Part shown: piece after piece, positions 15,741 to 42,277 of the stretch | How positions within the stretch are numbered: the first letter of the stretch is position 1 | Layout of the letters: each line of letters begins with the position of its first letter | Assembly (NCBI GenBank): GCA_039586815.1 | Contig: JBDHJR010000007.1 | Location: 1,844-65,843, forward strand | Reading direction: 5' to 3' | DNA from: Gemmatimonadota bacterium | Lineage (GTDB): Bacteria; Gemmatimonadota; Gemmatimonadetes; Gemmatimonadales; GWC2-71-9 | DNA length: 64,000 bases | Made by a program: the position numbers and the translations under genes | Notes under the pieces: generated by a model | Told to the model about the DNA's origin: nothing | The model's database searches: none | Seen by the model: only the letters and a program-made list of their open reading frames with translations

Positions 15741-17513
15741 GTGGCACTCGCGGCGGTAGCGCTCTACGCTCGAACGATCGGGTTCGGTTGGGTGTTCGAC
15801 GACAATTTCGACGTCGTCAGCAACACGTTCGTACAGTCATTCGCATACCTGCCGCAGTGGTTCACGACCACCTCATGGACTGGAGCCGCGGGGGAGAACT
15901 TCCTCTATCGGCCACTCGCGCTGCTGACCTATGCCTTGAACTACCAGGTCTCCGCGCTCGAGCCCTGGAGCTACCACCTCGTCAACATCGCGCTGCACGC
16001 CGGCGTCTCGGTGCTAGTCGTACGAGTCGGCCGGATTTGGGGGCTCTCGACGATGGCCGCCGGTCTCGGCGGTCTCCTGTTTGCCGTGCACCCCGTTCAC
16101 GTGGAGGTCGCGGCGGCAGTGTTCGGGCGCAAGGACTCGCTCATGGCGCTGTTCACCCTCGCCATGGTACTGCTGCACCGGAGGGCACTGGCCCGAGGGG
16201 GATGGACTGCGTTGCTGCCGGTGGTCGCATACGCCTGCGCCATGCTGTCCAAGGAAGCGGGGGTGGTGAGTCTGGCCCTCGTGGCGGTGCACGACTGGTA
16301 CCTCGAGCCGGACCGTGGCAGGCTGCTCAGGAATCAGCGGGCAGCGGGACTGTACATCGCCTACCTACTCACGTTCCTGGTCTACCTGCTCGTTCGGACG
16401 ACCGTCGCCGGCGGGATCGGCGTGGCCGAAACGTCGTTCCTGGACAATCCCCTGGTCGCAGCCGGGCCGGGAGCACGCCTGGGTACGGCCATTGTCGTGG
16501 TTGGACGCGGCGTCGCACTGCTGGCGGCGCCCCTCACACTGTCACCCGACTACTCCTACGACGCGATACCCGTCGTCCAGTCGCTGTTCGACCTGCGGCT
16601 CGTGGCGACCGTCGTGGGGCTCGGCCTGCTGGGGTGGATGCTGGCGACCCGCGGGGTCCGCAGCCCGGCCGTGCCGATTGGGGTGCTGTGGTACGCCATC
16701 GCACTGTTCCCCACTTCGAACCTGCTTCTTCCGGTGGGGACGATGTTCGCGGAACGGCTGCTCTACCTACCCAGCGTGGCCGCCTGTCTCCTCGCGGCCG
16801 CAGGGATCGCATGGATGAGCCGCAGGAGCGGTCGCGTCGCTCTGGCGGCCGCGTTTGGGCTGGTGGCGGCCTTCTCAATCCAGACGGTGCGGTACTCGAG
16901 CGCTTGGCGGGACGACGTCGCGCTCTTCCGCTGGGCGGTGGCGAGCGTGCCGCAATCCACCAAGGCACACCACAAGCTGGGCGAGGAGCTATTGCGTGCC
17001 GGTGACCTGGGTCAAGGCGTGCGGGAGCTGGATCTGGCCCTCACGATCGCGCCCGAAAACGGATACGCCGCATCGACGCGGGCGGTGGCGGAGCGGCTGA
17101 TCGCCGACCGCTACTTGCAGCACGGTGAGGAGGCAGTCGACCCTCCCACCGACCCCGACCTGCTGAGCGTTCTGGCCAAGGTGAGCGGTGACCGCGGCGA
17201 TTTCGCGCAGGCCGAGCGCTACTGGCAGGCGGCGCTCTCGATCGATTCGCTGCACTCACACAGCCTGGCCGGCATGGGCCTGTTGCACCTCATCAGGTCC
17301 GACACGGCCAGCGCGATCGGGTACCTTGAGCTGGCGGTGGCGCAGGAGCCGCCGCCGGCCCCCGCGTGGTTCAACCTGGGGCGTATACACCTGGCACGCG
17401 GCGAACGCCTGCTCGCAGCGCGGGCGCTGCGCCAATTCGTGGCGTTGGCCGGTTCACGGTACCCGACCCAGGTACAGTGGGCGGAGGGCGCACTTGCCAC
17501 CCTGACACAATGA
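15741..17513 (+). CDS. Membrane protein with C-terminal TPR repeats (PMT/TMTC-like glycosyltransferase-fold candidate)
   Basis: The N-terminal ~400 aa hold ~10 TM helices starting …YARTIGFGWVFDDNFDVVSN…. The C-terminal ~180 aa are TPR units (…AHHKLGEELLRAGDLGQGVRELDLALTIAP…, …AWFNLGRIHLARGERLLAARALRQFVAL…). Confidence 0.7.
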   Translation: MALAAVALYARTIGFGWVFDDNFDVVSNTFVQSFAYLPQWFTTTSWTGAAGENFLYRPLALLTYALNYQVSALEPWSYHLVNIALHAGVSVLVVRVGRIWGLSTMAAGLGGLLFAVHPVHVEVAAAVFGRKDSLMALFTLAMVLLHRRALARGGWTALLPVVAYACAMLSKEAGVVSLALVAVHDWYLEPDRGRLLRNQRAAGLYIAYLLTFLVYLLVRTTVAGGIGVAETSFLDNPLVAAGPGARLGTAIVVVGRGVALLAAPLTLSPDYSYDAIPVVQSLFDLRLVATVVGLGLLGWMLATRGVRSPAVPIGVLWYAIALFPTSNLLLPVGTMFAERLLYLPSVAACLLAAAGIAWMSRRSGRVALAAAFGLVAAFSIQTVRYSSAWRDDVALFRWAVASVPQSTKAHHKLGEELLRAGDLGQGVRELDLALTIAPENGYAASTRAVAERLIADRYLQHGEEAVDPPTDPDLLSVLAKVSGDRGDFAQAERYWQAALSIDSLHSHSLAGMGLLHLIRSDTASAIGYLELAVAQEPPPAPAWFNLGRIHLARGERLLAARALRQFVALAGSRYPTQVQWAEGALATLTQ

Positions 17514-17645: not shown

Positions 17646-18584
17646 CTACTCGATGATGTAGGGAATGCCCCAGATGTTGGCGTTGTAGTCGTCACCGTCC
17701 TGGGTGGCGAACGTGCCGGCGTCGATCGCGTCCACGGCTATCCGCTCGCGCCCACGGTGCTTCACCATCCAACTCAGCGTCCAGTATGTGTCGACGCCCG
17801 CGTCGGTCTCGCTCACCACCATCTGCATCGGCAGCCTCACCCACATCCGCATGTCCAGGCTGGCGTGGAACAGGTGGAGGTACACGAAGGTGGGCGGCGT
17901 GAAGTCCGCGTCGGAGCTGTTGTCCACCCACGCCTTCACGGTCACTTCCTGCTCGGGGCGCAGGTGCGGCACGCGGCCGTCCACTTCGAACAGCTGGCTG
18001 GGATCCTCGACCTCGAGGAACGGCTCTCCGTCCACCCAAACCTCGATGCGTGCTATATCCACGGTCTGCTTGTCCGGATCGGTCAGCACCACCTCGGCAG
18101 GCGAAACCGCTACCAGGCGCCAGCGCCGCCCTCTCTCATCGGTATTCGCAGCGTCGTTGCGCCGGAACCGGGCGTACTGCACGAGCGTCTGGTTCAGCGG
18201 CTTGCTGGTGGGGTTGAACTGATCGTCCTCTGTGATGTCGAGCAGGAACTCGCCTTCGAACACGAGCTCCTTGGTGACCTGCGCGATGCCGGCCTCGGTG
18301 TCCACGTCGATGGTGATCAAGCGTTGGACCGGCCGGCCGTGGCGTCGGCCCCAAGCTCGCGGCGCTGCGACCCCTTCCCCAGCCGCGCCTGGCGCTGCTG
18401 CCGGGCTTGCACCCTGCGCCACGCCTTCAATACCCAACTCGTCGGAGAAGAACCCCGACTCCTGCAGGATTTGGAGAATCTCCTCGCGATCCTCTTCCGA
18501 GGCGTTCCCCAGGCCGGTGGTGTCGGTACACGCCGCCAAGGCGAATGCGCCGAGCACGACGGCCGTCATGAGGTAGCGTTTCAT
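17646..18584 (-). CDS. Lipoprotein, unknown function
   Basis: MKRYLMTAVVLGAFALAAC|TD is a signal peptide with a lipobox. The 312-aa soluble domain matches no family I recognise. Confidence 0.6.
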   Translation of the reverse strand: MKRYLMTAVVLGAFALAACTDTTGLGNASEEDREEILQILQESGFFSDELGIEGVAQGASPAAAPGAAGEGVAAPRAWGRRHGRPVQRLITIDVDTEAGIAQVTKELVFEGEFLLDITEDDQFNPTSKPLNQTLVQYARFRRNDAANTDERGRRWRLVAVSPAEVVLTDPDKQTVDIARIEVWVDGEPFLEVEDPSQLFEVDGRVPHLRPEQEVTVKAWVDNSSDADFTPPTFVYLHLFHASLDMRMWVRLPMQMVVSETDAGVDTYWTLSWMVKHRGRERIAVDAIDAGTFATQDGDDYNANIWGIPYIIE

Positions 18585-18736
18585 TGGATCCCTCCCAGTG
18601 TTCGAGCCTAGTCTATCGCTTCTGGGAAGGGGGACGCAGCGACATTAGGGGGTGTTAAGCACGTGATGGGGATCACACTCGATTTCCCCGGGCGGCGGGC
18701 GCATTCGGGAATGCCTCGGGTGGCCGAGGCCGTGTC

Positions 18737-19849
18737 TCACTCGGGCACTGGGGACGATTCCCTGAGCTCCACGAAACCGTAGACGACTATTCTGTCGGGT
18801 CCTGACTGGTTGGTCACGAAGATCAGGTGCTGCAGCTCGAACTGCGGGTGCACGTACTGCCTGAAGTAATCGAGATGCCGGTAGTCCACTGCCACCTTCG
18901 CCGGGAGGGACATGAAACCGGGGCCACGGTAGGGGCCTCCGAAGAACGTGAGGAGCTTCCCCTCGCGGTCGAAGATCTGCACGTTCTCGAACCGCGCATC
19001 CACCACATAGACCCGCCCCTCCTCATCCACGGCCACGCCCTTGGGTAGCGCGAACTGCCCGAAGGCAACGCCACGGCTGCCAATCGTCCGGAGGTGGTGG
19101 CCTTCCGTTGAATACACCTCCACCTTGGCCCCCAACTGGTCGCTGACGTACACTTCGTCGCGCCACACGTAGAGGTTTGCGGGCCTCGCAAGTCCGCCCG
19201 GCTCACGCGGCTCGAGGCCGTTGGGGAAAGAGAACAGGTGTTCACCCGAGGCCCTGTCGAACACGCGCACACCCCGTACCGCGTAGTCCGAGATCCAGAT
19301 CCGGTCCTCGGTCACGAACACATCCCCAGGCTGCACCACGCTGTCGGCACCCACGCTCCCCCGGTACGTGCCGGTGCTGTCCAGCACGAGGACCTCGCCC
19401 AGGCCGAGGTCGGCAACGTAGAGATTCCCCGCGTCATCCATGTGGCAGTTCACAGGTCGTCCGATGCGCTCCGGACCCCCAGCATACACGTGTTCCAGAG
19501 TCCGCTCCTCGAGATCGAGCACCTCGAGCCCGGGAAGCCCCAGGTCGCACACGTAGATCTTGCCGCCGCCGACCGCGAGCCCGTATGGACGCACTATGAG
19601 GCTCACCGAATCGACCTCGCTCTCGCCCACCAGCCACGACAGGAACGAACGCGACTGCGCTTCCCGTAGATCCGAGGCCGACGTGATACGCGTGAGGAAC
19701 TGAATGCGAGCGGTATCGGGAGGTGGCGGGAATACCACCAGAGAGTCCGAGGGGACCGACGATGCCTGCTTCCCAGCGCACCCGCCGAGATTCAACCCGA
19801 CGGCTACCAGCACTGCGCCCTGGCGCAACCGGCGTGCAACAGACTTCAT
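18737..19849 (-). CDS. NHL-repeat / six-bladed beta-propeller lipoprotein
   Basis: Lipobox …VAVGLNLGGC|AGK. Repeated blades of the type G.F..P.G.AVD..G.IYV.D (…RPYGLAVGGGKIYVCDLG…, …RPVNCHMDDAGNLYVADLG…, …LPKGVAVDEEGRVYVVDAR…). Confidence 0.7.
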   Translation of the reverse strand: MKSVARRLRQGAVLVAVGLNLGGCAGKQASSVPSDSLVVFPPPPDTARIQFLTRITSASDLREAQSRSFLSWLVGESEVDSVSLIVRPYGLAVGGGKIYVCDLGLPGLEVLDLEERTLEHVYAGGPERIGRPVNCHMDDAGNLYVADLGLGEVLVLDSTGTYRGSVGADSVVQPGDVFVTEDRIWISDYAVRGVRVFDRASGEHLFSFPNGLEPREPGGLARPANLYVWRDEVYVSDQLGAKVEVYSTEGHHLRTIGSRGVAFGQFALPKGVAVDEEGRVYVVDARFENVQIFDREGKLLTFFGGPYRGPGFMSLPAKVAVDYRHLDYFRQYVHPQFELQHLIFVTNQSGPDRIVVYGFVELRESSPVPE

Positions 19850-19873
19850 ATCGGCAGACTCCCTTGAATGACC

Positions 19874-19903
19874 GAAGGGGATGACCGTTTGGGCATCCCC
19901 TTC
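19874..19903 (-). terminator. Intercistronic stem-loop (10-bp stem) between the tetraheme gene and the NHL propeller gene
   Basis: GAAGGGGATG-N10-CATCCCCTTC. No U-tract, so it could be a terminator, attenuator or processing/stability element. Confidence 0.35.
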
Positions 19904-19950
19904 GTACTATAGAGACCAGCGGTCCAACTCGCCACCGCTCGCCGGTTCGC

Positions 19951-20556
19951 CTACTTCGTGTGGCAATCTCCACAGAGGGAAGCCGGAGCCAAGCGCAGGA
20001 ACATGACCTGGCCCTCGCCGTGCGGATTGTGGCAGCTCGCGCACTCGACGTCACCACCCCGTAGCGGGAGAGACGTCGGGGTGCCGGCCACCAGGTCGCC
20101 GTCCGTCGAAGCCGCAGCTGCGTAGTCGATCGACACCGGATGGTCGTCACCCAGATTGGTGCCGATGTTCGCGCTGGCGTTCACCAGGCCCTGCGCATCC
20201 GCCCCGCCCCCGAAGTTGTCGACGTTCAGCGTCCCGTCATGGCATCCCAGGCACAGGCGCGATGACTCGTTCACCGTACTCGGATTGGTCTCCATCGTGA
20301 GGCTGCTATAGAGCACGGAATACGTGGCCGCGGCATTCACGGAGTGGTTCCACAAAGGACTGATAGTCGTGGCCGGGCTGTGTGGCACGTGACATGATTC
20401 GCACAGACCGGCAGCAAGCCCGTTGTAGTTAGCTGACGAGGGGTTGCCAGCCACGAAGTCGTGCGGACTGTTGTCGACCTGACTCCAAGCCTGACCCATC
20501 GCCGCGGCTGCAGGCATCAGCAGCAGCGCCGCGACAGTAAAGAGCGTCTTCTTCAT
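19951..20556 (-). CDS. Tetraheme c-type cytochrome ('doubled CXXCH' Geobacter-type family)
   Basis: Signal peptide MKKTLFTVAALLLMPAAAAMGQA. Four CxxCH motifs (CESCH, CLGCH, CASCH, CGDCH) with the pattern SPHDF…CxxCHxPH typical of paired-CXXCH cytochromes. Confidence 0.85.
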   Translation of the reverse strand: MKKTLFTVAALLLMPAAAAMGQAWSQVDNSPHDFVAGNPSSANYNGLAAGLCESCHVPHSPATTISPLWNHSVNAAATYSVLYSSLTMETNPSTVNESSRLCLGCHDGTLNVDNFGGGADAQGLVNASANIGTNLGDDHPVSIDYAAAASTDGDLVAGTPTSLPLRGGDVECASCHNPHGEGQVMFLRLAPASLCGDCHTK

Positions 20557-20811
20557 CCCACCCTCCTTCAGTCCAGCCGGACCATTGGCCCAAGGCTGAG
20601 GAGAAACTCGTGATTATCGCTGAGTACAGCTTAGGTGAGTGGGCGAATCGCTACTGTGATACTCGTCATAAACTCGCGTTCATCTTTCTTGTGATTTCAG
20701 TCATAGTGAATTGCTCCGGATTGCTGCATACATACTGCGCGTACTTCAGACGAAATTCATCGATTCTTCATTGAGGAGATCCGATTCCCGAGAAGTGATA
20801 TCGGGATTGTC
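20557..20811. promoter_or_regulatory. AT-enriched divergent intergenic region (shared promoter/operator region of the two arms of the cytochrome cluster)
   Basis: ~255 nt, markedly less GC-rich than the flanks, lying between divergent genes. It contains the inverted repeat TCCCGA(20786-20791)-N9-TCGGGA(20801-20806) just upstream of the + strand gene. I could not assign -35/-10 boxes with confidence. Confidence 0.4.
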
Positions 20812-21762
20812 TTGTCCCAAAGCATGGACTTCTCCGACTCGAAGCCCGCACGCCGGCAATCGCCGCGTCACAGGGAGATCGATCGAGTGCATAGCGGGGC
20901 GCAAAGCAGGATGGGTTGGGCGATGGTGGCAACCGCGGTCGCGTCGATCGTCGGGTGCAGTACGGCTGCGTCCGTATTCCTCGACTTGCCCGAGCAACGC
21001 GAACAACCTGCGGTGCCCATTGCCGCCACTACGAGTCTGGCCGCCCCGCCGCAAGACACCGTCAGGCCACCGATCGAATCCACCCTGAGCGCAGACAGCG
21101 CCCTAGCATTGCTCCCGAAGGACGCCGCCGGCGACGTCGATTGGGTTGCGGCACTCCGCTCGGGCGTCGTGCGACCGAGACGCGGCCTCCCTGGAGTGGC
21201 TTCCCCCAGTGGCAACTCCGACTTCGGCTATGATTTCCGACTCCGGGGCCCGAACGAGATGTTCGACGCTCTCTTCCCACACTCCTCCCACGTGGAGTGG
21301 ATGGCCTGCGACGCGTGCCACCCGTCGATCTTCCCGTATCGCGGGGCCCCGATCTCGATGAAGGAAATCAACGAGGGTGACTCCTGCGGCCGCTGTCACG
21401 GTACGGTCGCGTTCCCCGCCTCCACTTGCTCGCGATGCCACCCGGCCATGCCGGCACCCTCACCGCGCCAGACGCAGCTGAGCCACGACATTCTGCCGGC
21501 GCGTGCCGGCAGCGACAGCACCAGCCCGTCGGGCGAGTATCCCAGGGCCCGGTTCGCGCACTGGGTTCACCGCGTCCGCTACCAGTGCTCGGCGTGCCAC
21601 CCGCAGCTCTTCGACATGCGTGCCGGCTCCGACACTCTCACAATGAGCGCCATGCAGAAGGGAGAGGCATGCGGCGCGTGTCACGACGGAGACGTCGCCT
21701 TCTCGCTTCTGAACTGCACCACCTGTCACGCGACGCCTGCCGGTGGAGAGGAGGGGCCCTGA
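20812..21762 (+). CDS. Hexaheme cytochrome c with two c7-type triheme domains
   Basis: Six CxxCH motifs (CDACH, CGRCH, CSRCH / CSACH, CGACH, CTTCH) in two repeats of the c7 pattern F.H..H….C..CH…………C..CH……….C..CH. The start is uncertain: TTG 20812, ATG 20824, or ATG 20911. The last would give a lipoprotein-like signal MGWAMVATAVASIVGC. Confidence 0.8.
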   Translation: MSQSMDFSDSKPARRQSPRHREIDRVHSGAQSRMGWAMVATAVASIVGCSTAASVFLDLPEQREQPAVPIAATTSLAAPPQDTVRPPIESTLSADSALALLPKDAAGDVDWVAALRSGVVRPRRGLPGVASPSGNSDFGYDFRLRGPNEMFDALFPHSSHVEWMACDACHPSIFPYRGAPISMKEINEGDSCGRCHGTVAFPASTCSRCHPAMPAPSPRQTQLSHDILPARAGSDSTSPSGEYPRARFAHWVHRVRYQCSACHPQLFDMRAGSDTLTMSAMQKGEACGACHDGDVAFSLLNCTTCHATPAGGEEGP

Positions 21763-23696
21763 CCCGGCTGGGGACGCTGGCTGCGCTTCTCGCGCTGGCC
21801 CTGCCCCTTCAGCCAGCGCGCGGGCAGAGCCCGGTCTCGCTGACGTCGGGTCAGGGGCAGATCGGCGTCGAGTTCCTGGGGCTGTGGTCCGATTACGACG
21901 CACGACCCGGGATTCGGCAGGCCAACTTCAGGGAGTGGGCCGAGGCTCGCGTCCGTGCCACCATCGTCGATCCCCGCCTCCTCAGCTTGCGGCTGCGCAT
22001 CAGACCCGAATGGCAGCAGTCCAACTGGGGCGGCGAGACTGACGTGCCTGATCAGACGGCTGCACGGCTCGGCTGGAACGGCTCGCTGACGCTGCTGGAG
22101 GGGCGCCCGGTCTCGCTCACCATGACCACGCTGCGCTCGACCGCCACAACCCGCAGCCAGATCGGCTCCGAGACCGGAGTCACGCGCTCGGAGTTCACCT
22201 CGTCCTTGCGTGCACGTCTGCGTTATCTCCCGATGCGGATCACCTTTCGGCGCTTCACGCAGGACCACGACGTACGTTCCGGTCCGCTGCCGGTGCGCCA
22301 GTGGTTCACCAGCAGCCGTCTGCGGCTGAGCGCGAAGAACTCCAAGACGCAGCTGTCGCTGGAGCGACACTGGTACGACGACCGCCTGCAGCAGCCAAAC
22401 GATTTCACGGAGACACACGGGTGGTTCCATCACATGTTCCGCTGGGGCAAGGGCAGCAGCATCGCGTCAGACGTGGACTTCGTGGATCGAGTTGGTGGCT
22501 ACCCCTACCGCAACTTCTCCTGGTCGGAGAGGGTGCACCTGCAGCACACACGCTCCGTCAACTCCGAGTACGAGTTCCGCACGGGCTCGACACGGGCGGG
22601 CTTGGGATCGAGCAGCTTCCGCTCGCTCGGCGCCGCGGTGTCGTTTCCCATCATGGCCGCCCTGAGAGCCCGGATCGAGGGATCTTCCCTTCGGACGCGG
22701 TTCGACATCGGCCACGAGAGCATTCTGCGCGTTGGGCCCCGGCTGGAGTTCGCCACCCGACTGCCGCTCCGTTCGCGGCTCAGTGTCGGGACTGCGCTCA
22801 TGTACGAGCGGGCCTCACAGCAGCCAGTGGCCGACCAGTGGGTCCCGGTCGCCGGTGAGCGACATATAGTGGACGTCCAGCGCAGCTTCTTCCTCGATCG
22901 GGCCGCGGTCGACCTCGCCTCGATTCGCGTGCTTCGCAACGATCGAACACTCGTTTACCAGTCGGCTTTCGACTATGAACTCGTCGAATCGGGGCCATTC
23001 ATTCAGGTAGTGGTACTCCCGGCCGGCCTGATTCAGGTCGGTGACACGCTCCTCGTGGACTACCGGCACCACGTCGTCCCACAGGCAAGTAAGGAGCAGT
23101 TGGTCGCCACCTTGAACGTGACCATCTCCAGCGGACCTGTCCTGGCGTACTCTCACTCTCGATTGACCGGCGGACTGACGGCGGACGACCCACCTCCACT
23201 GCCGGTGCCGACAGGTAGTGCAGTCACCAGTCTGCGTGACCTCGACGAGATCGTCTTCGGACTGCGCGTGCGCGGCAGAATCCCGATCGGCCAGGGTGAT
23301 GCCGGTATCGAGCGGTCCATCCGCAGGGCGGACGCCTACCGTATCGAGACGCTCGAACTGAGGGCGATCTGGAGCTTCACCGTCGGCCCGGGCATTCTCG
23401 GTTCGGTGCAGGGAGCCTTGGCACGGACGGATGGGAGCGACGGTCCTTCACGCACGCTCTCCGGCAGCGCCTCCGTTGTGTGGTGGGCGCACCGCTCGCT
23501 CTCACTCCGCGCAACGCTGGGTTCATGGCAGCGCAGTGTCGAAGACAGCGACGCATCCTTCCTTGGTGGCGGAGTGGGTGCCGAGTGGCGGCGCGGCAAG
23601 TTCCTAGCCGCGTTGCGCTACGATCACTCGCAGTGGGACGAGTTCAGCCCCCGACTGGACGACCGGGTTTCCGCGATTCTCGTGCGCGAGTTCTGA
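21669..23696 (+). CDS. Putative outer-membrane beta-barrel protein (porin component of a porin-cytochrome module)
   Basis: Signal-like …LGTLAALLALALPLQPARGQ. The long body has alternating-hydrophobicity, Arg/Ser/Thr/Gly-rich segments with no TM helices or Cys, and it ends …RVSAILVREF (C-terminal aromatic, OMP hallmark). The start is uncertain: the ATG at 21669 overlaps the upstream gene by 94 nt, and a non-ATG start near 21760 is possible. Confidence 0.55.
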   Translation: MRRVSRRRRRLLASELHHLSRDACRWRGGALTRLGTLAALLALALPLQPARGQSPVSLTSGQGQIGVEFLGLWSDYDARPGIRQANFREWAEARVRATIVDPRLLSLRLRIRPEWQQSNWGGETDVPDQTAARLGWNGSLTLLEGRPVSLTMTTLRSTATTRSQIGSETGVTRSEFTSSLRARLRYLPMRITFRRFTQDHDVRSGPLPVRQWFTSSRLRLSAKNSKTQLSLERHWYDDRLQQPNDFTETHGWFHHMFRWGKGSSIASDVDFVDRVGGYPYRNFSWSERVHLQHTRSVNSEYEFRTGSTRAGLGSSSFRSLGAAVSFPIMAALRARIEGSSLRTRFDIGHESILRVGPRLEFATRLPLRSRLSVGTALMYERASQQPVADQWVPVAGERHIVDVQRSFFLDRAAVDLASIRVLRNDRTLVYQSAFDYELVESGPFIQVVVLPAGLIQVGDTLLVDYRHHVVPQASKEQLVATLNVTISSGPVLAYSHSRLTGGLTADDPPPLPVPTGSAVTSLRDLDEIVFGLRVRGRIPIGQGDAGIERSIRRADAYRIETLELRAIWSFTVGPGILGSVQGALARTDGSDGPSRTLSGSASVVWWAHRSLSLRATLGSWQRSVEDSDASFLGGGVGAEWRRGKFLAALRYDHSQWDEFSPRLDDRVSAILVREF

Positions 23697-23698
23697 AG

Positions 23699-24514
23699 GT
23701 GCGGACCGTCATCTCATTCGCCGTGATCTGCCTGGTCGCCTTTCCCGGGTACACGTACGCTCAGCACGCTGCGCTCGGAGGATCGCTCGAGTCGGGGAAC
23801 AGCTGCTCGGTATGCCACACCTCCCATCCCGAACGCAGCACCACGCGCAGCCTTATTCAGGATCGTGATTTGTCGGATAGAGCCGCGTGGCTGCGCCACC
23901 AGGCAACCGGCGTCTCGGCCGTGTCCCTCAGCTGTCTCCGGTGCCACGCCGACGCCAGCGTACGTCAGCGCCAGCCGGAGTTCGCCAGGCGCGCGGTCTT
24001 GGCACCCGAACGAGCGTTTCTCGGCTTCGACCTGGGCGACGATCACATGCTGGGAACCTTCGATCCCCTGATCGACGACTACTCGCACCGCATCCGTGGT
24101 CAGGCCGATCCTCGGACCGAGCAGCGGAGGCCGACGATCCTCGGTGACACCACCATCGTGATCGAGTGCACGACCTGCCACGATCCACACGACCGCGTCT
24201 CCGCCATTCCGAATGTCGCCAGACAGCACATGGTATGCGGCACGTGCCACGACCTCGCTACGTACCTCACCAGGCATCACTCAGGGCAGGCCTGCTCGGA
24301 CTGCCACGCAGTGCACGGGAGCGCACAGGCAGGATTGCTCATGGGTCGGGGGCCGGAGGAGACCTGCGGTCGCTGCCACGGGGGCCTGGGCGTGCAGTCC
24401 GACGACGGTCGATTGGGCATGATGGCGGCGGCCCGGGGCCCGCAGATTCCACTCAGCGATGATCACCAGCTGGGCTCGAACTGCATCGACTGCCACGGGG
24501 CGCATCGGCGCTAG
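23699..24514 (+). CDS. Heptaheme c-type cytochrome
   Basis: The GTG at 23699 lies 2 nt after the upstream stop. Signal VRTVISFAVICLVAFPGYTYAQ. Seven CxxCH motifs (CSVCH, CLRCH, CTTCH, CGTCH, CSDCH, CGRCH, CIDCH). I rejected the 5' extension of the track ORF to 23480 because it overlaps the barrel gene. Confidence 0.8.
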   Translation: MRTVISFAVICLVAFPGYTYAQHAALGGSLESGNSCSVCHTSHPERSTTRSLIQDRDLSDRAAWLRHQATGVSAVSLSCLRCHADASVRQRQPEFARRAVLAPERAFLGFDLGDDHMLGTFDPLIDDYSHRIRGQADPRTEQRRPTILGDTTIVIECTTCHDPHDRVSAIPNVARQHMVCGTCHDLATYLTRHHSGQACSDCHAVHGSAQAGLLMGRGPEETCGRCHGGLGVQSDDGRLGMMAAARGPQIPLSDDHQLGSNCIDCHGAHRR

Positions 24515-24517
24515 ACG

Positions 24518-26383
24518 CTAGAACCTCCCCCCGTCACCGTGTCGGTGACAGCCGTAGCAGTTGTCCTTCGTCACCATCGCCGTGCGGTTGTGGCACGTGT
24601 TGCACCACGCTCCGGCATCGCTCACCGGATCGGCACTGCTCGCATTGGTGACCACCCCATAGTCGAAAGTCTGCAGCCAGTTGCCCCCCTGCTTCGCATA
24701 GTAACCGTCCAGCGGCACACCGGTCCTGCTCTTGACCGTGTCCACCAGCATGAAGTGCGACGTCGTATCGCGACTCACATCGACGTTGGGATGTGCGCGG
24801 TGGCAGACTGAGCAGGTCAAGATGGAGCCGGGCCCCCACCCGTCATCACCCTCCAGGTCGAGTCCGGCGGCTGACTGGCTCCGACCACCCATGCCGTCAC
24901 TGGCCCACGTGCTCTGAATGTTCACGATCGTCGGCGCCGCGTGGTCCTGGACACCGGACGGGAAGGTGCCGTCGTGGCAGTCGAGACAGAACTCGCTCAA
25001 CGTATCCGCATAGCTCGTGTAGGCGTAGTAATACGAGTCGGTACCCACGACGTGACCGTCCGCCACCGTCGGATCTGGATCCAGAATGAACGGCAGTGCA
25101 GTCGTGGCCGTGTGCGGATCATGGCAGTCGACACACTCGATCTTGGCACCGCTCCGCGCCTGCGCCGTTTGCTGGACGTCGTGACGGTCATTCAGGTTCG
25201 GGTTGCTGTTGAGGCCGGTGGCCTGCTGCACCCAATTGATCGCCCGGCTGAAGGCGGAGTTCAGGTCTATGCTGGATGGGCCACCGGCGTCGTGGCAATT
25301 GAGGCAGAATCCTTCCTCCTGCTCCGCGTTGGCGGGCGCCGTGGCCGGCACGCCGGCCGGAGCGAGCAGCTTGAGCTTGTCCGAGCCGTGGCCGCTGGCA
25401 TGGCAGCCGAAGTCACCGTCGCCGTAACACGACACGGACGGCGACGTGGAGTTGTGAGACGCCAGGGCCCACGCGGCACCGTCGATCTGCGGGACAGCCA
25501 CGTTGTCGGTGAACGGCGTCGTATCACCGTTGGCGCCGTCGGCGTCGTGGCAAGCCAGGCAGAACGAGTTCAGCGAGACCGCTTCGGGGGCTGACGCGTT
25601 GGGATCTCCCGTCAGCACGATCGCCGCAGCCGTATTGCCGGGGTCGTCCACATTCCACAGGCGCACGCTGCCCTGCTGGTGCTCGCTCTGGTCGTGACAA
25701 ACCACGCAGTCCAGCGTATCGGCGGGTGTGGCCGCGTGGTGACTGAGCCGATCGAATTCCGCGACGACCGCGCGGCGGCTGCCCTTTACGGACGCGTGAC
25801 AGTCGGTACAGGCTCCTCCGGCCGCTGCGAACCCGCTGGCATGGGTGTGACAGGCTGGGCAGTCCTTCTGGTTGTTGTGTGCCGGCATGCCGCCGCTCTG
25901 GCGGTGGTAGTCGGTGGCCGTGTGGCATACCTCGCACACGCCGTCGTAGGTGCCGTCGCCGTCGGCGAAGTCGGTCGTGTCCATGAACACTACCGCTCGA
26001 GCTCCGCCGGTATAGCGGTTGTCGAGCGCAACGGGGATCAGCGCCAGGTTGGTGCCCGTTTCGCCCTCGTGGTCGTGACAGTCCCGGCAGCTTGTCGAGT
26101 CGGGTGGCGTATGCTTGCCGCCCGCGTGAACGGCCACGCCCTTAGGCACCGTCTCCCCATTGTACGTGGCAGGCGCACCGTCCGCGTGGCACGACATGCA
26201 GAGATCCTCGGCGCGCTGGTAGTCCATCAGCTGCGCCTCGGCAGCACCGTGCAGATTGTGGCAATAGTCACAGGTGTCGTGTTTCACCTGTGCGCGGGCC
26301 GTTTCGGCGCTCCCACCCAGGACGCCCAGCACGACCACGACAGCCGTGACGACCTGCGCTGCCGCGAACCGAGCGCAGCTCAT
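24518..26383 (-). CDS. Large multiheme c-type cytochrome (14 CxxCH plus one CX7CH candidate)
   Basis: Signal …VVVVLGVLGGSAETARAQ. Motifs: CDYCH, CMSCH, CRDCH, CEVCH, CPACH, CTDCH, CVVCH, CLACH, CLNCH, CVDCH, CLDCH, CSVCH, CNTCH, CYGCH, plus CYGDGDFGCH. The long heme-poor spacers suggest a surface-exposed or extracellular cytochrome. Confidence 0.85.
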   Translation of the reverse strand: MSCARFAAAQVVTAVVVVLGVLGGSAETARAQVKHDTCDYCHNLHGAAEAQLMDYQRAEDLCMSCHADGAPATYNGETVPKGVAVHAGGKHTPPDSTSCRDCHDHEGETGTNLALIPVALDNRYTGGARAVVFMDTTDFADGDGTYDGVCEVCHTATDYHRQSGGMPAHNNQKDCPACHTHASGFAAAGGACTDCHASVKGSRRAVVAEFDRLSHHAATPADTLDCVVCHDQSEHQQGSVRLWNVDDPGNTAAAIVLTGDPNASAPEAVSLNSFCLACHDADGANGDTTPFTDNVAVPQIDGAAWALASHNSTSPSVSCYGDGDFGCHASGHGSDKLKLLAPAGVPATAPANAEQEEGFCLNCHDAGGPSSIDLNSAFSRAINWVQQATGLNSNPNLNDRHDVQQTAQARSGAKIECVDCHDPHTATTALPFILDPDPTVADGHVVGTDSYYYAYTSYADTLSEFCLDCHDGTFPSGVQDHAAPTIVNIQSTWASDGMGGRSQSAAGLDLEGDDGWGPGSILTCSVCHRAHPNVDVSRDTTSHFMLVDTVKSRTGVPLDGYYAKQGGNWLQTFDYGVVTNASSADPVSDAGAWCNTCHNRTAMVTKDNCYGCHRHGDGGRF

Positions 26384-27360
26384 GGGACCCGCTCTATGCT
26401 GGCGGTTCCGTTGCTTACGACGATGAGTCGTCCGTCCTCGCCCAGCACCACGTCGAGGGGCACGCGCAGCCTGCCTCCGTCGGCAACGTGGGCGCCCACG
26501 TGTGGCAGCGGCTGGCCGGTGGCGCGGTCGAACACGAGAACCTGCCCCAGCAGCGCGTCAGCCACGTAGATCCTGCCTTCGCCGTCGACGGCGATGCCTT
26601 GCGGCCGGGAGAAGCCGTCCGAGCACCCGAGCATGCCGCAGGTACCATCGCCCGAGATCTCGGCCAGGAAGTTGCCGTCGTAGTCAAAGATCTTGACGGC
26701 CGCCGCGACACCCGGCTCGCCGTAATCGCTGACGAGCACCTCCCGGCGGTTCTCGTCCACGGCGATACCCGTGGGCGCGCGGAGCCCCGCCCGGTCCGGG
26801 CTGGGACCGGCCAGCGTCCCTCGAGCCTCGCCATCGAGAGTGAATGTCTTCACCTCACGTGTCCCGCCGGCGACGACGAACACGAGGCCCATCCGATGAT
26901 CAATGGCGAGGTCACTGGGATACGGGGCCGCACCGCGCCCGAAGGAGTACTTCCAGGTCCCGTCGGGACCGAACACGTCCACGGTACCTGCGTCGGCGTT
27001 TCCCACAAACACCCGGCCGCCCCACAAGCCCACCCCCAGGGGCTTTCCGTCAACCTGAAGTGCCTGATCCGGCTGGAGGGTCGCCGCGTTGACTCGGAGC
27101 ACAACTTGAGATCGCGAGTCCGACACGAGCAACCCGCCGCTCGGGGTCAGGACCATTCGAACGGGGGACTGCAGCCGGAGGAGTGAGGTATCGAACGGCC
27201 GCGAGAAGTTGGGCTCGACCGGGTCTTCCGGTCCGGCCAGTGGCTCCTCGTGCTGGCCGACGGTTGGACGGTCGACGCACGCCGCCGCGAGCAGGGCTCC
27301 GCCCAGCACGGCGAGTTTGACCGCAGAGTTCCGTCGATACAGGCTACGCATCGTGATCAA
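26380..27360 (-). CDS. NHL-repeat / beta-propeller lipoprotein
   Basis: Lipobox …LGGALLAAAC|VD. Blades include …PVRMVLTPSGGLLVSDSR…, …PSDLAIDHRMGLVFVVAG…, …PTGIAVDENRREVLVSDYG…, …PQGIAVDGEGRIYVADAL…, …PLDVVLGEDGRLIVVSNG…. Its stop overlaps the start of the 14-heme gene (26380-26383). Confidence 0.7.
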   Translation of the reverse strand: MITMRSLYRRNSAVKLAVLGGALLAAACVDRPTVGQHEEPLAGPEDPVEPNFSRPFDTSLLRLQSPVRMVLTPSGGLLVSDSRSQVVLRVNAATLQPDQALQVDGKPLGVGLWGGRVFVGNADAGTVDVFGPDGTWKYSFGRGAAPYPSDLAIDHRMGLVFVVAGGTREVKTFTLDGEARGTLAGPSPDRAGLRAPTGIAVDENRREVLVSDYGEPGVAAAVKIFDYDGNFLAEISGDGTCGMLGCSDGFSRPQGIAVDGEGRIYVADALLGQVLVFDRATGQPLPHVGAHVADGGRLRVPLDVVLGEDGRLIVVSNGTASIERVP

Positions 27361-27519
27361 CCGTCCCCCTATCCACCCAACTGCTTGTAGATAAAGCCTT
27401 TACGGCACACGACGCCGGAGTGCTCAGGCACCGCTCCGCCGCACGACCTTTGTCGAGCGATTCTCTAGGGATGTTGTAGGGAACAGGGGTGCCGTGCCGT
27501 GACACCCCTCACGATGGGC

Positions 27520-28056
27520 TTATACGTGTGCGATGGTCTTCGCGCCGCATTCCGCGCAGAACTTCGCGCCGGCCGGCAACTCCTTGCCGCACTCTGAGCA
27601 GAACGACCCACTTTCAGAGACCGCCGCGGAGAGCTTGCCGCCGCAGTTGGAACAGAACGTCGCGTCCACCTCGGGCCGCGGTCCGCAAGACGGGCACACG
27701 GCGCCGCGCCCGGCCGCCGCTCGCTTGATCAACTCCTCGGCCACGTCCTCCGCAGCCATGTCCAGCTCCTCCGCCTCCTCGGCCTCGATCGCCGCGATCG
27801 CCACCTTGGAGTACTTCGCCTTGAGCGCTGCGTAATCATCATCGGACAGCTTGCCCGTGGCGCGGTCGAACTCGATCTCCTTCAAGGCCAGCAACGCCTG
27901 GACCTTGGCCGAGTCGGACTCTTCGATGTCGGTGAAGTCGATCTCGTCGGCGGGGGATGTCGCCTGCTCGTCGGCCCCTCGGGCCGAGAACAGGGGCTCG
28001 AGCACGAGCGCCACCGCGACGAAGGCTACGATGACACCCGCTATCAACTCCAGCAT
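27520..28056 (-). CDS. Membrane-anchored double zinc-ribbon protein (possible CcmI-like accessory factor)
   Basis: N-terminal TM helix MLELIAGVIVAFVAVALVLEPLF, which resembles the CcmI N-terminus. An acidic coiled region follows, then two CxxC…CxxC ribbons (CPSCG…CSNCG, CSECG…CAECG). It lies 6 nt downstream of the ccmH-like gene. Confidence 0.55.
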   Translation of the reverse strand: MLELIAGVIVAFVAVALVLEPLFSARGADEQATSPADEIDFTDIEESDSAKVQALLALKEIEFDRATGKLSDDDYAALKAKYSKVAIAAIEAEEAEELDMAAEDVAEELIKRAAAGRGAVCPSCGPRPEVDATFCSNCGGKLSAAVSESGSFCSECGKELPAGAKFCAECGAKTIAHV

Positions 28057-28062
28057 GAATCG

Positions 28063-28644
28063 CTACTCCAGCTTTTCCAGCTCGGACTCGAGCTTGGCTC
28101 GTTCGTCAAGACTGAGGTCGGTCGGCAGGTCCGCCGCACCGGCCAGCTCCACCCCGTCCGCCGAGCGACGAGAGAAGACCCAGAGGAGCGCGGATCCGAC
28201 CGCTATTATCGCCGCACCAGGAACGAAGTATGCCGCGAGATTGAACCCTTCCTTCTTCGGCGCCATCAGCACGGTCTCGCCGTGCTTCGCCACGAACGCA
28301 TCGAGTATCTCCTCACCGGTCATCCCCTCCTCCACCATGCCCACCAGCTCCCGGTGGATCGCGGGAGAGGTTCCGCAGGTGAAGTCGGTAGTGCGGCACG
28401 TGTAAACATCCAGATTGCACCCGCAGGTGCAGCGCATCTGGCTCTCGATGCCGACGATGAAGGGATCGTTCTCGTAGTCGGTGATGCGGCCGCGTGGGCG
28501 ACCGGCGAGATCCGGTCGCAGTAGCTGCCCCACCGCTGTGTCACCCTGCGCCTGCGGATCGCCCTGCAGCAGCGCACCTGGCAAGAGGGCCGCTCCCGAC
28601 AGCTTCAGGGCATCGCGCCGCGAGTAGCGTCGCTCAACTAGCAC
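28063..28644 (-). CDS. CcmH/NrfF-like cytochrome c maturation protein with an atypical Cys motif
   Basis: Tat-like leader RRYSRRDALKLSGAALL. Core …QMRCTCGCNLDVYTCRTTDFTCGTSPAIHRELVGMVEEGMTGEEILDAFVAKHGETVLMAPKKEG… is followed by a TM helix, which is the CcmH topology. The canonical LRCxxC box is replaced by RC-T-C-G-C. Its start overlaps the ccmF stop. Confidence 0.5.
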   Translation of the reverse strand: MLVERRYSRRDALKLSGAALLPGALLQGDPQAQGDTAVGQLLRPDLAGRPRGRITDYENDPFIVGIESQMRCTCGCNLDVYTCRTTDFTCGTSPAIHRELVGMVEEGMTGEEILDAFVAKHGETVLMAPKKEGFNLAAYFVPGAAIIAVGSALLWVFSRRSADGVELAGAADLPTDLSLDERAKLESELEKLE

Positions 28645-30670: not shown

Positions 30671-30674
30671 GTGA

Positions 30675-31079
30675 TCAGGCGGAAGGTTCCGATTCGTACC
30701 GCGAGCCGCACTTGGCAAGCAGACTGGTTGCGTGGAACGTCCCGTCAGGCGCCAGTCGTCCCTCGACCACCACGTCCACGTCGTCGGTGAACGTGTCGGG
30801 CGCGATTCCTCGATAGACCACCGGGTACGTCTGCTCGCCGTCCGTCACCTCGAAGTTGATCGTCTGCGAGGCGACGTCGCGCTCGATGGTGCCGTGCACC
30901 ACCCGCGCTCCCATCTTGACACCGACGTCGTGGAAGGTGGGATCGGCCTGGACCCTGTCGGCCAGCTCCGACGGGGTGAGGAAGTACACCCCCGTCTCCT
31001 TGATGCCCGAGGTCATGAGGAAGCCAACCGTCGTGAGGACCAGCCCGGCTCCGATGATGAACTTAGTGCGTGGTTTCAT
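30675..31079 (-). CDS. ccmE: Heme chaperone CcmE, Cys-variant (CxxxY instead of HxxxY)
   Basis: N-terminal anchor KFIIGAGLVLTTVGFLM, then an OB-fold core …VKMGARVVHGTIERD…INFEVTDGEQTYPVVYRGIAPDTFTDDVDVVVEGRLAPDGTFHATSLLAKCGSRYE. The canonical LAKHDxxY heme-binding His is a Cys here. Confidence 0.85.
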   Translation of the reverse strand: MKPRTKFIIGAGLVLTTVGFLMTSGIKETGVYFLTPSELADRVQADPTFHDVGVKMGARVVHGTIERDVASQTINFEVTDGEQTYPVVYRGIAPDTFTDDVDVVVEGRLAPDGTFHATSLLAKCGSRYESEPSA

Positions 31080-41323: not shown

Positions 41324-42277
41324 CTACGGTGATCCCGGAATGGACGTCCCGTGACACACCGTGCACGCCTGCGGGTTGCTCTTCCGCAGACTCTCCGCGT
41401 TGAAGTTGGGCCCGTGTGGACTGACGCCCCGGTGGCAACTGATGCAGGAGCTCTCGGTGTGGCACGCCACACAGCTCTCGAGGCTCTGCCGCGCGGCTTG
41501 TCCATGACCCGCGCCGAAGCCCTGCTGGCCGTCGTGATATCCCGTGCCCTGAATGTTGTCGACAGTGAGCCGGGCCGTCTGGTGACAGTCCTGGCAGAAC
41601 TGCCCTGGATTGTGGCACGAGCTGCACTCGGCGAGCTGGGAATACGCCTCCGCCGGGTGCGCCGACAAGTAGTCGGCCTGGTGGTACCCCGGCGCGGGAT
41701 CCGCGGCCCCGGGCCGATGGCACGACAGGCAATCGGAGCGCACGTGGCAGTTGGCACACGTCTCCGGAGCCGATGTGGCCGGTCCGCGGTGCTCCTCGAC
41801 CCAGGCACCTATGTGGGACGCCGGCTGCGGCGCCTGCGCGTGGCACAGGCTGCAGGGCGACTCCGGCGCGGACTGGTGCGGCGCTTCGATGCCGTGGCAA
41901 CTGAGACAGTTGTCCACTACCGCGCGCTCGACCGCCATCGCGGGGGCGCCCGCCGCCTGGTGGCACGAAGCGCAGTCGATCGGCGGGTGCGTCTCGTGGC
42001 TGAAGTTGTCCGCTGCATAGGCGCCCGCCGTCGGCGGCTGGTACTCTACCACGGGCTGAATCTGCCCGTTGTGGCAGCCGGCACAGAAGGAGGCATCCGG
42101 GTAGACGGCTCCCTCACCGGCCACGCCGGAGTGACACATGGTGCAAGACGTGAACAGGGCAGCGTGTCGCTCGTGCGGGAATTGCCCTTGGGACCCTGGC
42201 TCCGGAGCCGGCGCCGGACCCGTTCCCGCAGCGGCGGCGATGACCACCCCCGCGGCCAGCGTCATCATGGTCTTCAT
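41324..42277 (-). CDS. Dodecaheme c-type cytochrome (c7/c3-type polymer, GSU1996-like architecture)
   Basis: ATG at 42277 (MKTMMTLAAGVVIAAAAG…). 12 CxxCH motifs in ~318 aa: CTMCH, CAGCH, CASCH, CLSCH, CSLCH, CANCH, CLSCH, CSSCH, CQDCH, CVACH, CISCH, CTVCH. c7-type leader motif FPHERHAALFTSCTMCH. Its start overlaps the stop of the barrel gene (ATGA at 42274-42277). Confidence 0.85.
   Translation of the reverse strand: MKTMMTLAAGVVIAAAAGTGPAPAPEPGSQGQFPHERHAALFTSCTMCHSGVAGEGAVYPDASFCAGCHNGQIQPVVEYQPPTAGAYAADNFSHETHPPIDCASCHQAAGAPAMAVERAVVDNCLSCHGIEAPHQSAPESPCSLCHAQAPQPASHIGAWVEEHRGPATSAPETCANCHVRSDCLSCHRPGAADPAPGYHQADYLSAHPAEAYSQLAECSSCHNPGQFCQDCHQTARLTVDNIQGTGYHDGQQGFGAGHGQAARQSLESCVACHTESSCISCHRGVSPHGPNFNAESLRKSNPQACTVCHGTSIPGSP

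Follow-up and report, generated by a model that had tools for sequence, protein, structure and literature searches.

A cluster of multiheme cytochrome genes at positions 18737–27360 of a 64,000-nt stretch of DNA from a Gemmatimonadota bacterium (the window; 65% G+C) is probably an OmcE-type extracellular-electron-transfer module, of the same cluster family as the omcE clusters of Geobacter and Desulfuromonas and the Uet (undecaheme electron transfer) cluster. An earlier note on this DNA, referred to here as the original prediction, did not connect the gene set with a described cluster type; both the omcE cluster (bioRxiv 10.1101/2025.10.22.684050) and the Uet cluster (bioRxiv 10.1101/2022.05.06.490989) had already been described. 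The core of the finding is already known, and what is new is a set of local variations, together with a lineage not previously discussed for nanowires. As judged by gene order and predicted domain content, the variations are a fused c7-type hexaheme cytochrome, a divergent pair of an NHL beta-propeller (NHL-2) and a 14-heme cytochrome, a layout in three strand blocks, ccm genes in place of ccs genes, and an extra lipoprotein gene. The assignment to the OmcE type is made because a tetraheme cytochrome in the cluster is homologous to OmcE over its full length and keeps eight heme-ligating histidines, because the gene set matches the published cluster definition, because the linkage of the genes is conserved, and because the units of the cluster share palindromes.

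The tetraheme cytochrome gene (19951–20556, minus strand) encodes a protein of 201 amino acids including a signal peptide, with a hydrophobic N-terminus and CxxCH motifs at residues 52, 102, 172 and 195. In a search against all PDB sequences, the protein aligns over its full length with 7TFS (E=8.5e-18), the OmcE filament of Geobacter sulfurreducens. It also aligns over residues 1–201 with 9YUQ (E=2.6e-17), the OmcE bundle of Desulfuromonas soudanensis (bioRxiv 10.1101/2025.10.22.684050). The distal histidines H32, H59, H139 and H179 line up with histidines of both solved OmcE sequences and, together with the histidines of the four CxxCH motifs, all eight heme ligands are kept relative to the OmcE proteins of both filaments. 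One of the four distal ligands of OmcE serves the inter-subunit heme. An alignment of 30 tetraheme relatives shows no variation at H32, H139 or H179; in a set of 83 relatives with four hemes, H139 and H179 are each kept in 80 sequences, H32 in 76 and H59 in 73. Judged by these alignments, the tetraheme protein is a full-length OmcE homologue and a candidate nanowire subunit, rather than the generic “doubled CXXCH” cytochrome of the original prediction.

The neighbors of the tetraheme gene also fit an omcE cluster. Petersen et al. (bioRxiv 10.1101/2025.10.22.684050) state that a minimal omcE cluster “always” comprises OmcE and a large beta-barrel together with two multiheme cytochromes and a pair of beta-propeller lipoproteins, and they regard OmcE homologues as nanowire-competent if a barrel and a propeller lipoprotein are encoded nearby. 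The window contains each of these components: an OmcE homologue, a large barrel, two propellers, and at least two accessory multiheme cytochromes. As in the omcE clusters of G. sulfurreducens and D. soudanensis, the tetraheme is of the OmcE type with all of its ligands, it is accompanied by two propellers, a barrel and accessory multihemes, and the genes are found beside cytochrome c maturation genes. There are also differences. The window has three accessory cytochromes (6, 7 and 14 hemes) where the minimal cluster has two, its genes occupy three strand blocks, and the adjacent maturation genes are those of System I (ccm) instead of resB/ccsB, which adjoin the omcE clusters of Desulfuromonadia according to Petersen et al. 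In addition, Gemmatimonadota is not among the phyla in that paper.

How widely is this gene set conserved? An alignment of tetraheme relatives was scanned against one genome per GTDB species, and the best 79 of the more than 548 loci with relatives were analyzed by searching the window proteins and iterated hidden Markov models (HMMs) against their six-frame open reading frames (ORFs). By record title, the 79 loci span at least 15 phyla, with the best matches, at ~40% identity, in Gemmatimonadota. The groups represented are Gemmatimonadota, Calditrichota, Bacteroidota, Ignavibacteria-type bacteria, Planctomycetota, Verrucomicrobiota, Kiritimatiellota, Acidobacteriota, Nitrospirota, Deferribacteres, Desulfobacterota, Geobacterales, Alpha-, Beta- and Gammaproteobacteria, and others. 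A recurrent gene order runs from OmcE (4 hemes) through a first NHL propeller (NHL-A), a cytochrome with 5, 6 or 9 hemes, the barrel, a cytochrome with 7–14 hemes, and a second propeller (NHL-B) to an 11-heme cytochrome. The OmcE-like component is found in 71 of the 79 loci, NHL-A in 60, the barrel in 51 (54 with an iterated HMM), NHL-B in 55, and the 11-heme cytochrome in 51, although these counts are a biased census because the loci were found through OmcE-like patterns. Of the 38 loci with complete 10-kb flanks, 27 contain all five components. The pairing of propellers with cytochromes is seen at the level of single genes as well: an NHL gene follows the OmcE-like gene in 54 of 86 cases with room downstream, and a class-B NHL gene is followed by a cytochrome of at least 10 hemes in 49 of 66. 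The linkage of propellers to cytochromes, for which the original prediction had proposed a co-occurrence check, is conserved in relatives, among both the genome loci and metagenome loci.

The 11-heme family of the canonical cluster is itself related to OmcE. Its N-terminus is a complete OmcE module, to which the tetraheme of the window aligns at HMM positions 28–232 (128 bits), and all eight histidine ligands are kept in 46–47 of 47 members (loci L002–L079; e.g., L058 16386–18137). From this relationship, the 11-heme cytochromes could be base or tip subunits of the filament. Petersen et al. saw no candidate for a base or tip subunit in omcE operons (bioRxiv 10.1101/2025.10.22.684050).

Closer relatives show the arrangement of the window itself. 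The trio of hexaheme, barrel and heptaheme genes is common to loci from Gemmatimonadota metagenome-assembled genomes (L001, L003, L009 and L052), and L001 has the same divergent layout; this, the G+C content, and the best matches of all the proteins fit an origin of the window in Gemmatimonadota. In the metagenome contigs L080, L162 and L163, the whole region is found in the same order, including a gene for a 312-amino-acid lipoprotein, a zinc-ribbon gene, ccmEFH, and the flanking genes. Identity to close relatives is 92–94% for CcmF, 84–90% for the OmcE homologue, 85% for NHL-2 (L080 and L162), 78–83% for NHL-1 (the propeller next to the OmcE homologue), 61–79% for the barrel, 60–69% for the heptaheme protein, and 64–65% for the 14-heme protein. 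Because the genes are syntenic and 60–94% identical in these relatives, all of them are maintained. The heptaheme and 14-heme proteins evolve fastest, which fits proteins that are exposed.

The two propellers differ in how readily they can be classified. NHL-1 (18737–19849, minus strand; ORF list and Pfam NHL) is a class-A six-bladed NHL propeller, scoring 501 bits on the class-A HMM versus 189 on class B, and its PDB relatives are the NHL propellers of TRIM71, Thin and Brat. It is 43–51% identical to proteins of Calditrichota, Bacteroidota and Ignavibacteria-type loci, whereas the OmcE homologue is 33–41% and the barrel 20–33% identical to distant loci. By these identities, NHL-1 is the best-conserved protein of the cluster across phyla, above the homologue of the filament subunit. 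NHL-2 (26380–27360, minus strand) is a divergent six-bladed propeller (Pfam NHL, 58.6 bits) whose PDB relatives are again NHL propellers; with 104 bits on class A and 98 bits on class B, it fits neither class. Matches of the propellers to SGL, arylesterase and ScyF models (Pfam, NCBIfam) are weak and all below curated cutoffs. The original prediction called both proteins NHL lipoproteins. The NHL assignment is supported by Pfam, while the lipoprotein status comes solely from lipobox-like motifs at the N-termini, read by eye as LGGC in NHL-1 and AAAC in NHL-2; a similar motif, IVGC, is found in the hexaheme protein.

The original prediction also stated that no defined role was known for the pairing of propellers with large cytochromes. 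This still holds, in that the cited papers on the pairing (PMC5815863; bioRxiv 10.1101/2022.05.06.490989; bioRxiv 10.1101/2025.10.22.684050) report no role-defining experiment. The pairing itself, however, has been in print since 2018, because Deng et al. reported that NHL propellers of Desulfovibrio ferrophilus are co-expressed with outer-membrane cytochromes, and they proposed a role in complex stabilization (PMC5815863). The suggestion that the propellers may help to assemble or anchor a surface cytochrome or filament is the same idea as in the current literature.

The barrel gene (ORF 21426–23696, plus strand) probably starts at 21669, although the start codon is uncertain, and every ATG, GTG or TTG candidate overlaps the 3′ end of the hexaheme gene. 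The mature protein has ~620 amino acids and ends in VREF, with a C-terminal phenylalanine. An AlphaFold2 model of the mature protein, built with 11 sequences, is all-beta, with about 28–30 long strands, a mean predicted local distance difference test score (pLDDT) of 85.6 and a predicted template-modeling score (pTM) of 0.72. The model is based on a shallow alignment because the word-indexed homologue search returned 6 and then 10 relatives; it was a local iterated HMM and a full HMMER scan that revealed the family, with 1,759 representative clusters at E<=1e-3, of which 1,206 reach E<=1e-10. Among the best 150 of the 1,759 clusters, relatives are mostly about 630–650 amino acids long. Foldseek matches of the model in the PDB are exclusively large outer-membrane barrels (TonB-dependent receptors, LptD and MtrB), with template-modeling (TM) scores of 0.25–0.43; the MtrB match is 6r2q_B (E=9e-7, TM 0.33). 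There is no Pfam family, NCBIfam family or sequence-related solved structure in the PDB for this protein. Given the fold model, the Foldseek matches, and the family size in HMMER, without a Pfam model, the barrel candidate of the original prediction is, as modeled, a giant outer-membrane beta-barrel of a large unannotated family.

The modeled barrel is interrupted, after about its 18th strand, by a small beta domain at mature residues ~347–415, or ~336–415 when delimited more widely (window 22836–23075). No other part of the family is as well conserved across phyla as this insert, which has motifs DY...VDY and an invariant Y411. It may be a plug or docking site and, judged by strand count, would be on the periplasmic side. 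The idea that it is a docking domain shared with cytochromes was dropped, having yielded one dubious match (L054).

The accessory cytochromes, like the other cytochromes of the cluster, match the Paired_CXXCH_1 and Cytochrome_C7 families (Pfam, NCBIfam). The hexaheme gene (ORF 20812–21762, plus strand, likely start 20911; 6 CxxCH) encodes two c7-type triheme domains of the TIGR04257 nanowire_3heme family (133 bits), and the protein matches PDB 3OV0, a multi-domain c7-type cytochrome, with E=8.5e-43. Its homologues adjoin the barrel in the four Gemmatimonadota loci listed above, and its domain content makes it a candidate periplasmic electron carrier. In Geobacterales loci such as L058, the cytochrome ahead of the barrel is a 5-heme protein, in contrast to the fused double-c7 hexaheme of the window. 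The heptaheme gene (likely 23699–24514, plus strand; 7 CxxCH) is directly 3′ of the barrel gene, and its homologues follow the barrel in L001, L003 and L009. Residues 31–185 of the heptaheme protein form an almost complete OmcE-like four-heme module without the N-terminal histidine, matching positions 43–212 of an OmcE-family HMM and PDB 9YUQ (E=3.6e-4). A more general proposal, that post-barrel cytochromes are OmcE-like base subunits, was rejected: 21 of 21 share only the C-terminal paired-CXXCH part, so the proposal could apply at best to this lineage.

The 14-heme cytochrome (24518–26383, minus strand) has 621 amino acids, a Sec signal peptide and 14 CxxCH motifs. The original prediction described it as heme-sparse, a relative term for a protein with one heme per 44 residues. 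It matches the Pfam model of MtrC/MtrF domain II/IV with 41 bits; its residues 398–513 match OmcE residues 28–148 (E=1.7e-6); and OmcE-like half modules are found at residues 399–477 and 198–281. On the 11-heme family HMM it scores 70 bits in a non-collinear match. In the canonical cluster of the 79 loci, a class-B NHL gene precedes an 11-heme gene with a complete OmcE module; HMM scores place NHL-2 and the 14-heme protein, which has half modules only, outside this pattern, and in the window they replace the canonical NHL-B/11-heme pair. The replacement pair recurs, however. Homologues of the 14-heme protein are found behind an NHL-2-like gene in L080, L162, L082, L085, L086, L088 and L090, and in L082 the cytochrome, with 15 hemes and 45% identity to the 14-heme protein, again has a convergent heptaheme-like gene after it. 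When metagenomes were scanned with the 14-heme protein, other NHL genes were seen upstream of large cytochromes in six further loci. Because NHL-2 belongs to neither class, because the match to the 11-heme HMM is weak, and because the pair recurs in metagenome loci, the NHL-2/14-heme pair is, on the sequence comparisons, a conserved but distinct variant of the propeller/large-cytochrome theme.

The units of the cluster are also connected by a shared type of palindrome. Two TGTGA-N6-TCATA sites are found at 20655–20670 and 20690–20705, within a 354-nt divergent promoter region (20557–20910) between the tetraheme and hexaheme genes, and these are the only two occurrences in 64 kb, against an expectation of 0.01. 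This gap has a G+C content of 0.56, compared with 0.63–0.70 in its flanks, in agreement with the AT-rich divergence point of the original prediction. Two further palindromes have the form GTGA-N6-TCAC: GTGATGGGGATCAC at 18663–18676, which is 79–92 nt upstream of the lipoprotein gene, and GTGACACCCCTCAC at 27499–27512, which is 139–152 nt upstream of NHL-2, between the zinc-ribbon gene and NHL-2. The consensus of the CRP/FNR family is TGTGA-N6-TCACA, and the four GTGA-N6-TCA(C/T) palindromes resemble sites of this family and are operator-like. Intergenic alignments show that all four are kept in L162 and L080, with the 27499–27512 site perfectly conserved, and in L162 they are the sole matches in 21.9 kb. 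The same type of palindrome was not found at the other cytochrome cluster of the window. Since the same palindrome type precedes each unit and is conserved in relatives, it can be argued that the units of the cluster are co-regulated. Similarly, the conserved site ahead of NHL-2 suggests that the NHL-2/14-heme unit has its own promoter, outside the ccm operon. No CRP/FNR-family regulator gene was found among ten other window ORFs scanned, and consensus scans for sigma-70 promoters and terminators gave nothing above chance.

How might such a module work? The adjacent ccm system would mature the cytochromes. Electrons would leave periplasmic carriers, for which the double-c7 hexaheme protein is a candidate, and would cross the outer membrane through the barrel of ~28–30 strands, housing or docking a multiheme for which the heptaheme protein is a candidate. 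They would then reach an extracellular polymer of the OmcE-like tetraheme extending from the cell surface. The NHL lipoproteins would be dedicated partners of the cytochromes with OmcE modules, NHL-1 for the OmcE homologue and NHL-2 for the 14-heme protein, and may act in assembly, holding or anchoring at the inner face of the outer membrane. Upstream of these steps, electrons of the quinol pool could be supplied by two fusion proteins encoded elsewhere in the window (43956–46886 and 47017–49059). As to the direction of flow, the known systems differ: OmcE of Geobacter serves metal reduction, whereas uptake is the proposal for Uet.

A more specific and tentative version of this mechanism, which we consider unlikely, is a heme-filament pathway in the style of chaperone-usher systems. 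Each NHL propeller would serve one cytochrome with an OmcE module as its periplasmic chaperone, for holding or assembly, the barrel would be an usher-like platform, and the large cytochromes with OmcE modules would be base or tip adaptors that wire the filament to the barrel conduit. The adaptor candidates would be the canonical 11-heme cytochrome, with its full module, and the heptaheme and 14-heme proteins of the window, with their partial modules. Three observations would be in line with the proposal: NHL-A is the most conserved component across phyla, propeller and cytochrome genes are paired one to one, and the same operator-like sites precede the units.

Several observations weigh against the assignment of the cluster to an OmcE-type module. 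To our knowledge, polymerization has been shown for just two OmcE homologues, and we know of no experiments in this organism or phylum. The AlphaFold2 model of the tetraheme protein, built without hemes from a 30-sequence alignment, has a pLDDT of 42, too low for its fold to be compared. The locations given above for the hexaheme, heptaheme and 14-heme proteins are guesses. The 79 loci were selected with OmcE-like peptide patterns, and their counts therefore apply to the family and not to genomes at large; even within this family, 32 of 86 OmcE-like genes lack a following NHL gene. Finally, orthology of NHL-2 and the 14-heme protein to the canonical NHL-B/11-heme pair is not clear, and one homologue of the 14-heme protein, in L078, stands without an NHL neighbor.

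There are three alternatives to an OmcE-type module. The divergence of NHL-2 and the 14-heme protein from the canonical pair, together with the three strand blocks, would be expected if separate modules (omcE/NHL-1, hexaheme/barrel/heptaheme, and NHL-2/14-heme) are merely juxtaposed, with the NHL-2/14-heme unit having another function and being here only for the ccm genes. The separate upstream site of NHL-2 is consistent with this explanation, as are pairs resembling NHL-2 and the 14-heme protein on contigs without a visible OmcE or barrel gene (L085, L086 and L090, all short contigs). Nevertheless, canonical clusters of many phyla hold both OmcE/NHL and NHL/large-cytochrome pairs around a barrel, and the palindromes found ahead of all units, in the window and in relatives, are absent from the other cytochrome cluster. 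The arrangement is also intact in L080, L162 and L163, and L082 shows the NHL-2/14-heme pair once more meeting a convergent heptaheme-like gene. Juxtaposition of separate modules seems rather doubtful. It is also unlikely, somewhat more so, that the cluster encodes a non-filamentous porin-cytochrome conduit like MtrCAB or Pcc, in which the tetraheme and 14-heme proteins are monomeric and the propellers stabilize the complex. The architecture of a barrel with periplasmic and outer cytochromes would be explained, MtrB is among the Foldseek matches of the barrel (6r2q_B), the 14-heme protein matches the MtrC/MtrF domain model, and complex stabilization is what Deng et al. proposed for the D. ferrophilus NHL proteins (PMC5815863). 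Moreover, tetrahemes similar to OmcE are widespread (bioRxiv 10.1101/2025.10.22.684050), and filament formation has been shown for few. Against a monomeric tetraheme, every OmcE heme ligand is kept, including the N-terminal histidine, and the neighbors are exactly those that define nanowire-competent homologues. Membership in the Mtr families is also missing: TIGR03508 (MtrA/DmsE) scores are 32–38 bits against a cutoff of 192, and the barrel, which MtrB resembles only as a generic large barrel (TM 0.33), has no Pfam match to the MtrB family. The “Pcc-type” label of the original prediction is apt as an architectural analogy, and similar in logic to MtrCAB and Geobacter Pcc in combining a periplasmic multiheme, an outer-membrane barrel and an outer multiheme, but sequence membership in the Mtr/Pcc families was not found.

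The remaining alternative concerns the propellers, which might be enzymes or substrate-binding modules (for a mineral or polymer, or acting as a lactonase or lyase) rather than partners of cytochromes. Here, the weak SGL, arylesterase and ScyF matches could be cited, as could the strong conservation of NHL-1, which would fit an active site; in addition, according to Eddie et al., Fe(III) oxide reduction by G. metallireducens has been linked to one of its NHL proteins, perhaps through adhesion (bioRxiv 10.1101/2022.05.06.490989). However, the enzyme-family scores are all under curated cutoffs, and the nearest solved relatives are NHL domains that bind protein or RNA. The one-to-one adjacency with cytochromes carrying OmcE modules, often in overlapping frames, points to a protein partner, and we regard an enzymatic or substrate-binding role as improbable.

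An OmcE-type module in this lineage can be compared with several other described systems. One is the Uet cluster of Ca. Tenderia electrophaga (bioRxiv 10.1101/2022.05.06.490989), which encodes a tetraheme (UetA), a peptidyl-prolyl isomerase (UetB), a 28-strand barrel (UetC), c7 trihemes (UetD, UetE and UetG), a cupredoxin (UetF), NHL proteins (UetH and UetI), and an undecaheme cytochrome (UetJ), with ccsAB downstream; a Uet cluster has been reported in Gallionella too (PMC10734462). The window shares a tetraheme, c7 triheme domains, a barrel of ~28 strands, two NHL proteins, a large cytochrome (extracellular in Uet), and adjacent maturation genes. It differs in that its c7 domains are fused in one protein, where Tenderia has three separate ones, and its large cytochrome has 14 hemes, where UetJ has 11; rotamase (peptidyl-prolyl isomerase) and cupredoxin domains were not found by Pfam and NCBIfam in the genes between 17.6 and 28 kb. 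Electron uptake is proposed for Uet, and the likeness was judged via the Uet-like loci L064, L056 and L053, not the Tenderia proteins. L064 (Alphaproteobacteria), which was retrieved via homology to the tetraheme, has the gene order OmcE homologue, SurA-like peptidyl-prolyl isomerase, 627-amino-acid protein, c7, c7, 301-amino-acid protein, c7, NHL, NHL, 11-heme, ResB; the 627-amino-acid protein, in the barrel slot, and the 301-amino-acid protein have no Pfam match. L053 (Acidiferrobacterales) has three separate c7 trihemes beside a barrel of the window's family. Homology between the window barrel and UetC is unproven, since matches of the window barrel HMM to the Uet-like barrels of L064 and L056 were not significant.

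Two further systems are likened by description. In the D. ferrophilus IS5 clusters DFE_448–451 and DFE_461–465 (PMC5815863), NHL propeller genes are co-located and co-expressed with multiheme outer-membrane cytochromes, as in the window in respect of gene location, but a barrel and OmcE homology are not described in that paper. The osc (OmcS companion) cluster of G. sulfurreducens (Shen et al. 2025, via PMC13194489) resembles the window in having dedicated accessory genes beside a nanowire subunit. Roles in folding, secretion and morphology, along with a porin-like mounting model, are proposed for the osc accessory genes, and OmcS is a hexaheme without sequence similarity to OmcE.

What are the implications of an OmcE-type module in this lineage? 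Export, initiation, anchoring and termination of nanowires are not yet understood in the field, and the window provides a complete, compact example of the cluster from a lineage not yet discussed for nanowires. With 79 loci in at least 15 phyla, the cluster type is much more widespread than the five phyla named in published work. The conserved first propeller and the OmcE module of the 11-heme cytochromes are concrete candidates for an assembly factor and a filament adaptor, and both could be tested in Geobacter. More broadly, these results suggest that long-range electron transfer may be open to many uncultured soil and sediment bacteria.

Two of the loci show unusual contexts. In L164 (3218–11929), a distant relative of the cluster is located beside a heme-copper oxidase operon (COX1, COX2 and CoxIIa). 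This relative has an NHL gene, two small cytochromes and a c7 cytochrome, and its barrel shares 28% identity with that of the window; the context may point to an aerobic user of the cluster, perhaps one that takes up electrons. L076, in a record labeled as a Thermoplasmata archaeon, has NHL, OmcE-like and 11-heme genes of bacterial type, reflecting either a binning error or horizontal transfer.

In the window itself, all genes were found in the ORF list where the original prediction had placed them, and its count of 31 CxxCH motifs in four proteins (4+6+7+14) was reproduced. Among six-frame ORFs of at least 80 amino acids in the 64 kb, those that contain CxxCH are either cytochrome-like or among a few with one motif each, and the counts in the cluster are thus far above chance. 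The heptaheme and 14-heme genes are convergent, with 3 nt between their stop codons, and the coordinates agree with the predicted 4-nt overlap of the NHL-2 and 14-heme genes. This unit was also said to be directly downstream of ccmEFH. It is on the same strand, but a gene for a membrane-anchored double zinc-ribbon protein (27520–28056, minus strand; Pfam DZR) intervenes. Together, the zinc-ribbon gene, ccmH, ccmF and ccmE (System I cytochrome c maturation) span 27520–31079 on the minus strand, with the ccm genes assigned by Pfam matches of the syntenic genes in relatives. The zinc-ribbon protein has an acidic linker and a C-terminal double zinc ribbon; its gene is directly after ccmH and is syntenic in relatives, where the protein is 80–83% identical, and a role in cytochrome maturation is not obvious.

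At the other end of the cluster, a gene for a predicted lipoprotein of 312 amino acids (17646–18584, minus strand) has a lipobox-like motif, FALAAC. The protein is 81–83% identical and its gene syntenic in L080 and L162, no relatives were found in Pfam, NCBIfam or the PDB, and it is missing from all 79 distant loci. Judged by this distribution, it is a lineage-specific accessory gene downstream of NHL-1. The ~100 nt ahead of the gene (18585–18685), which contain the 18663–18676 palindrome, are nearly invariant in relatives even though the proteins are ~80% identical. RNA folding of this leader is not significant (z = -0.47), and there are no Rfam family matches in the window. Just beyond the cluster, and syntenic in relatives, is a gene for a protein resembling TMTC/DUF1736-type protein O-mannosyltransferases, with tetratricopeptide repeats (TPRs; 15741–17513, plus strand). 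Petersen et al. report that many omcE clusters are adjoined by glycosyltransferases (including family 39) and TPR proteins, and that OmcE of G. sulfurreducens carries glycosylation (bioRxiv 10.1101/2025.10.22.684050). By analogy, a link of the TMTC-like gene to cytochrome glycosylation is possible.

A second, larger cytochrome cluster is found at 40823–61759 (minus strand), where ten ORFs together hold about 102 CxxCH motifs. Genes of the NHL, OmcE and barrel families are absent from it, and as an internal control it supports a specific pairing of NHL proteins with cytochromes in the OmcE-type cluster. Within it is a 602-amino-acid ORF without a Pfam match (42274–44082). The two proteins mentioned above as possible sources of electrons from the quinol pool are also encoded here. 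They are fusions of multiheme c and cytochrome b561 domains, with 19 hemes (43956–46886) and 11 hemes (47017–49059), and from their domain content they look like inner-membrane quinol-linked proteins.

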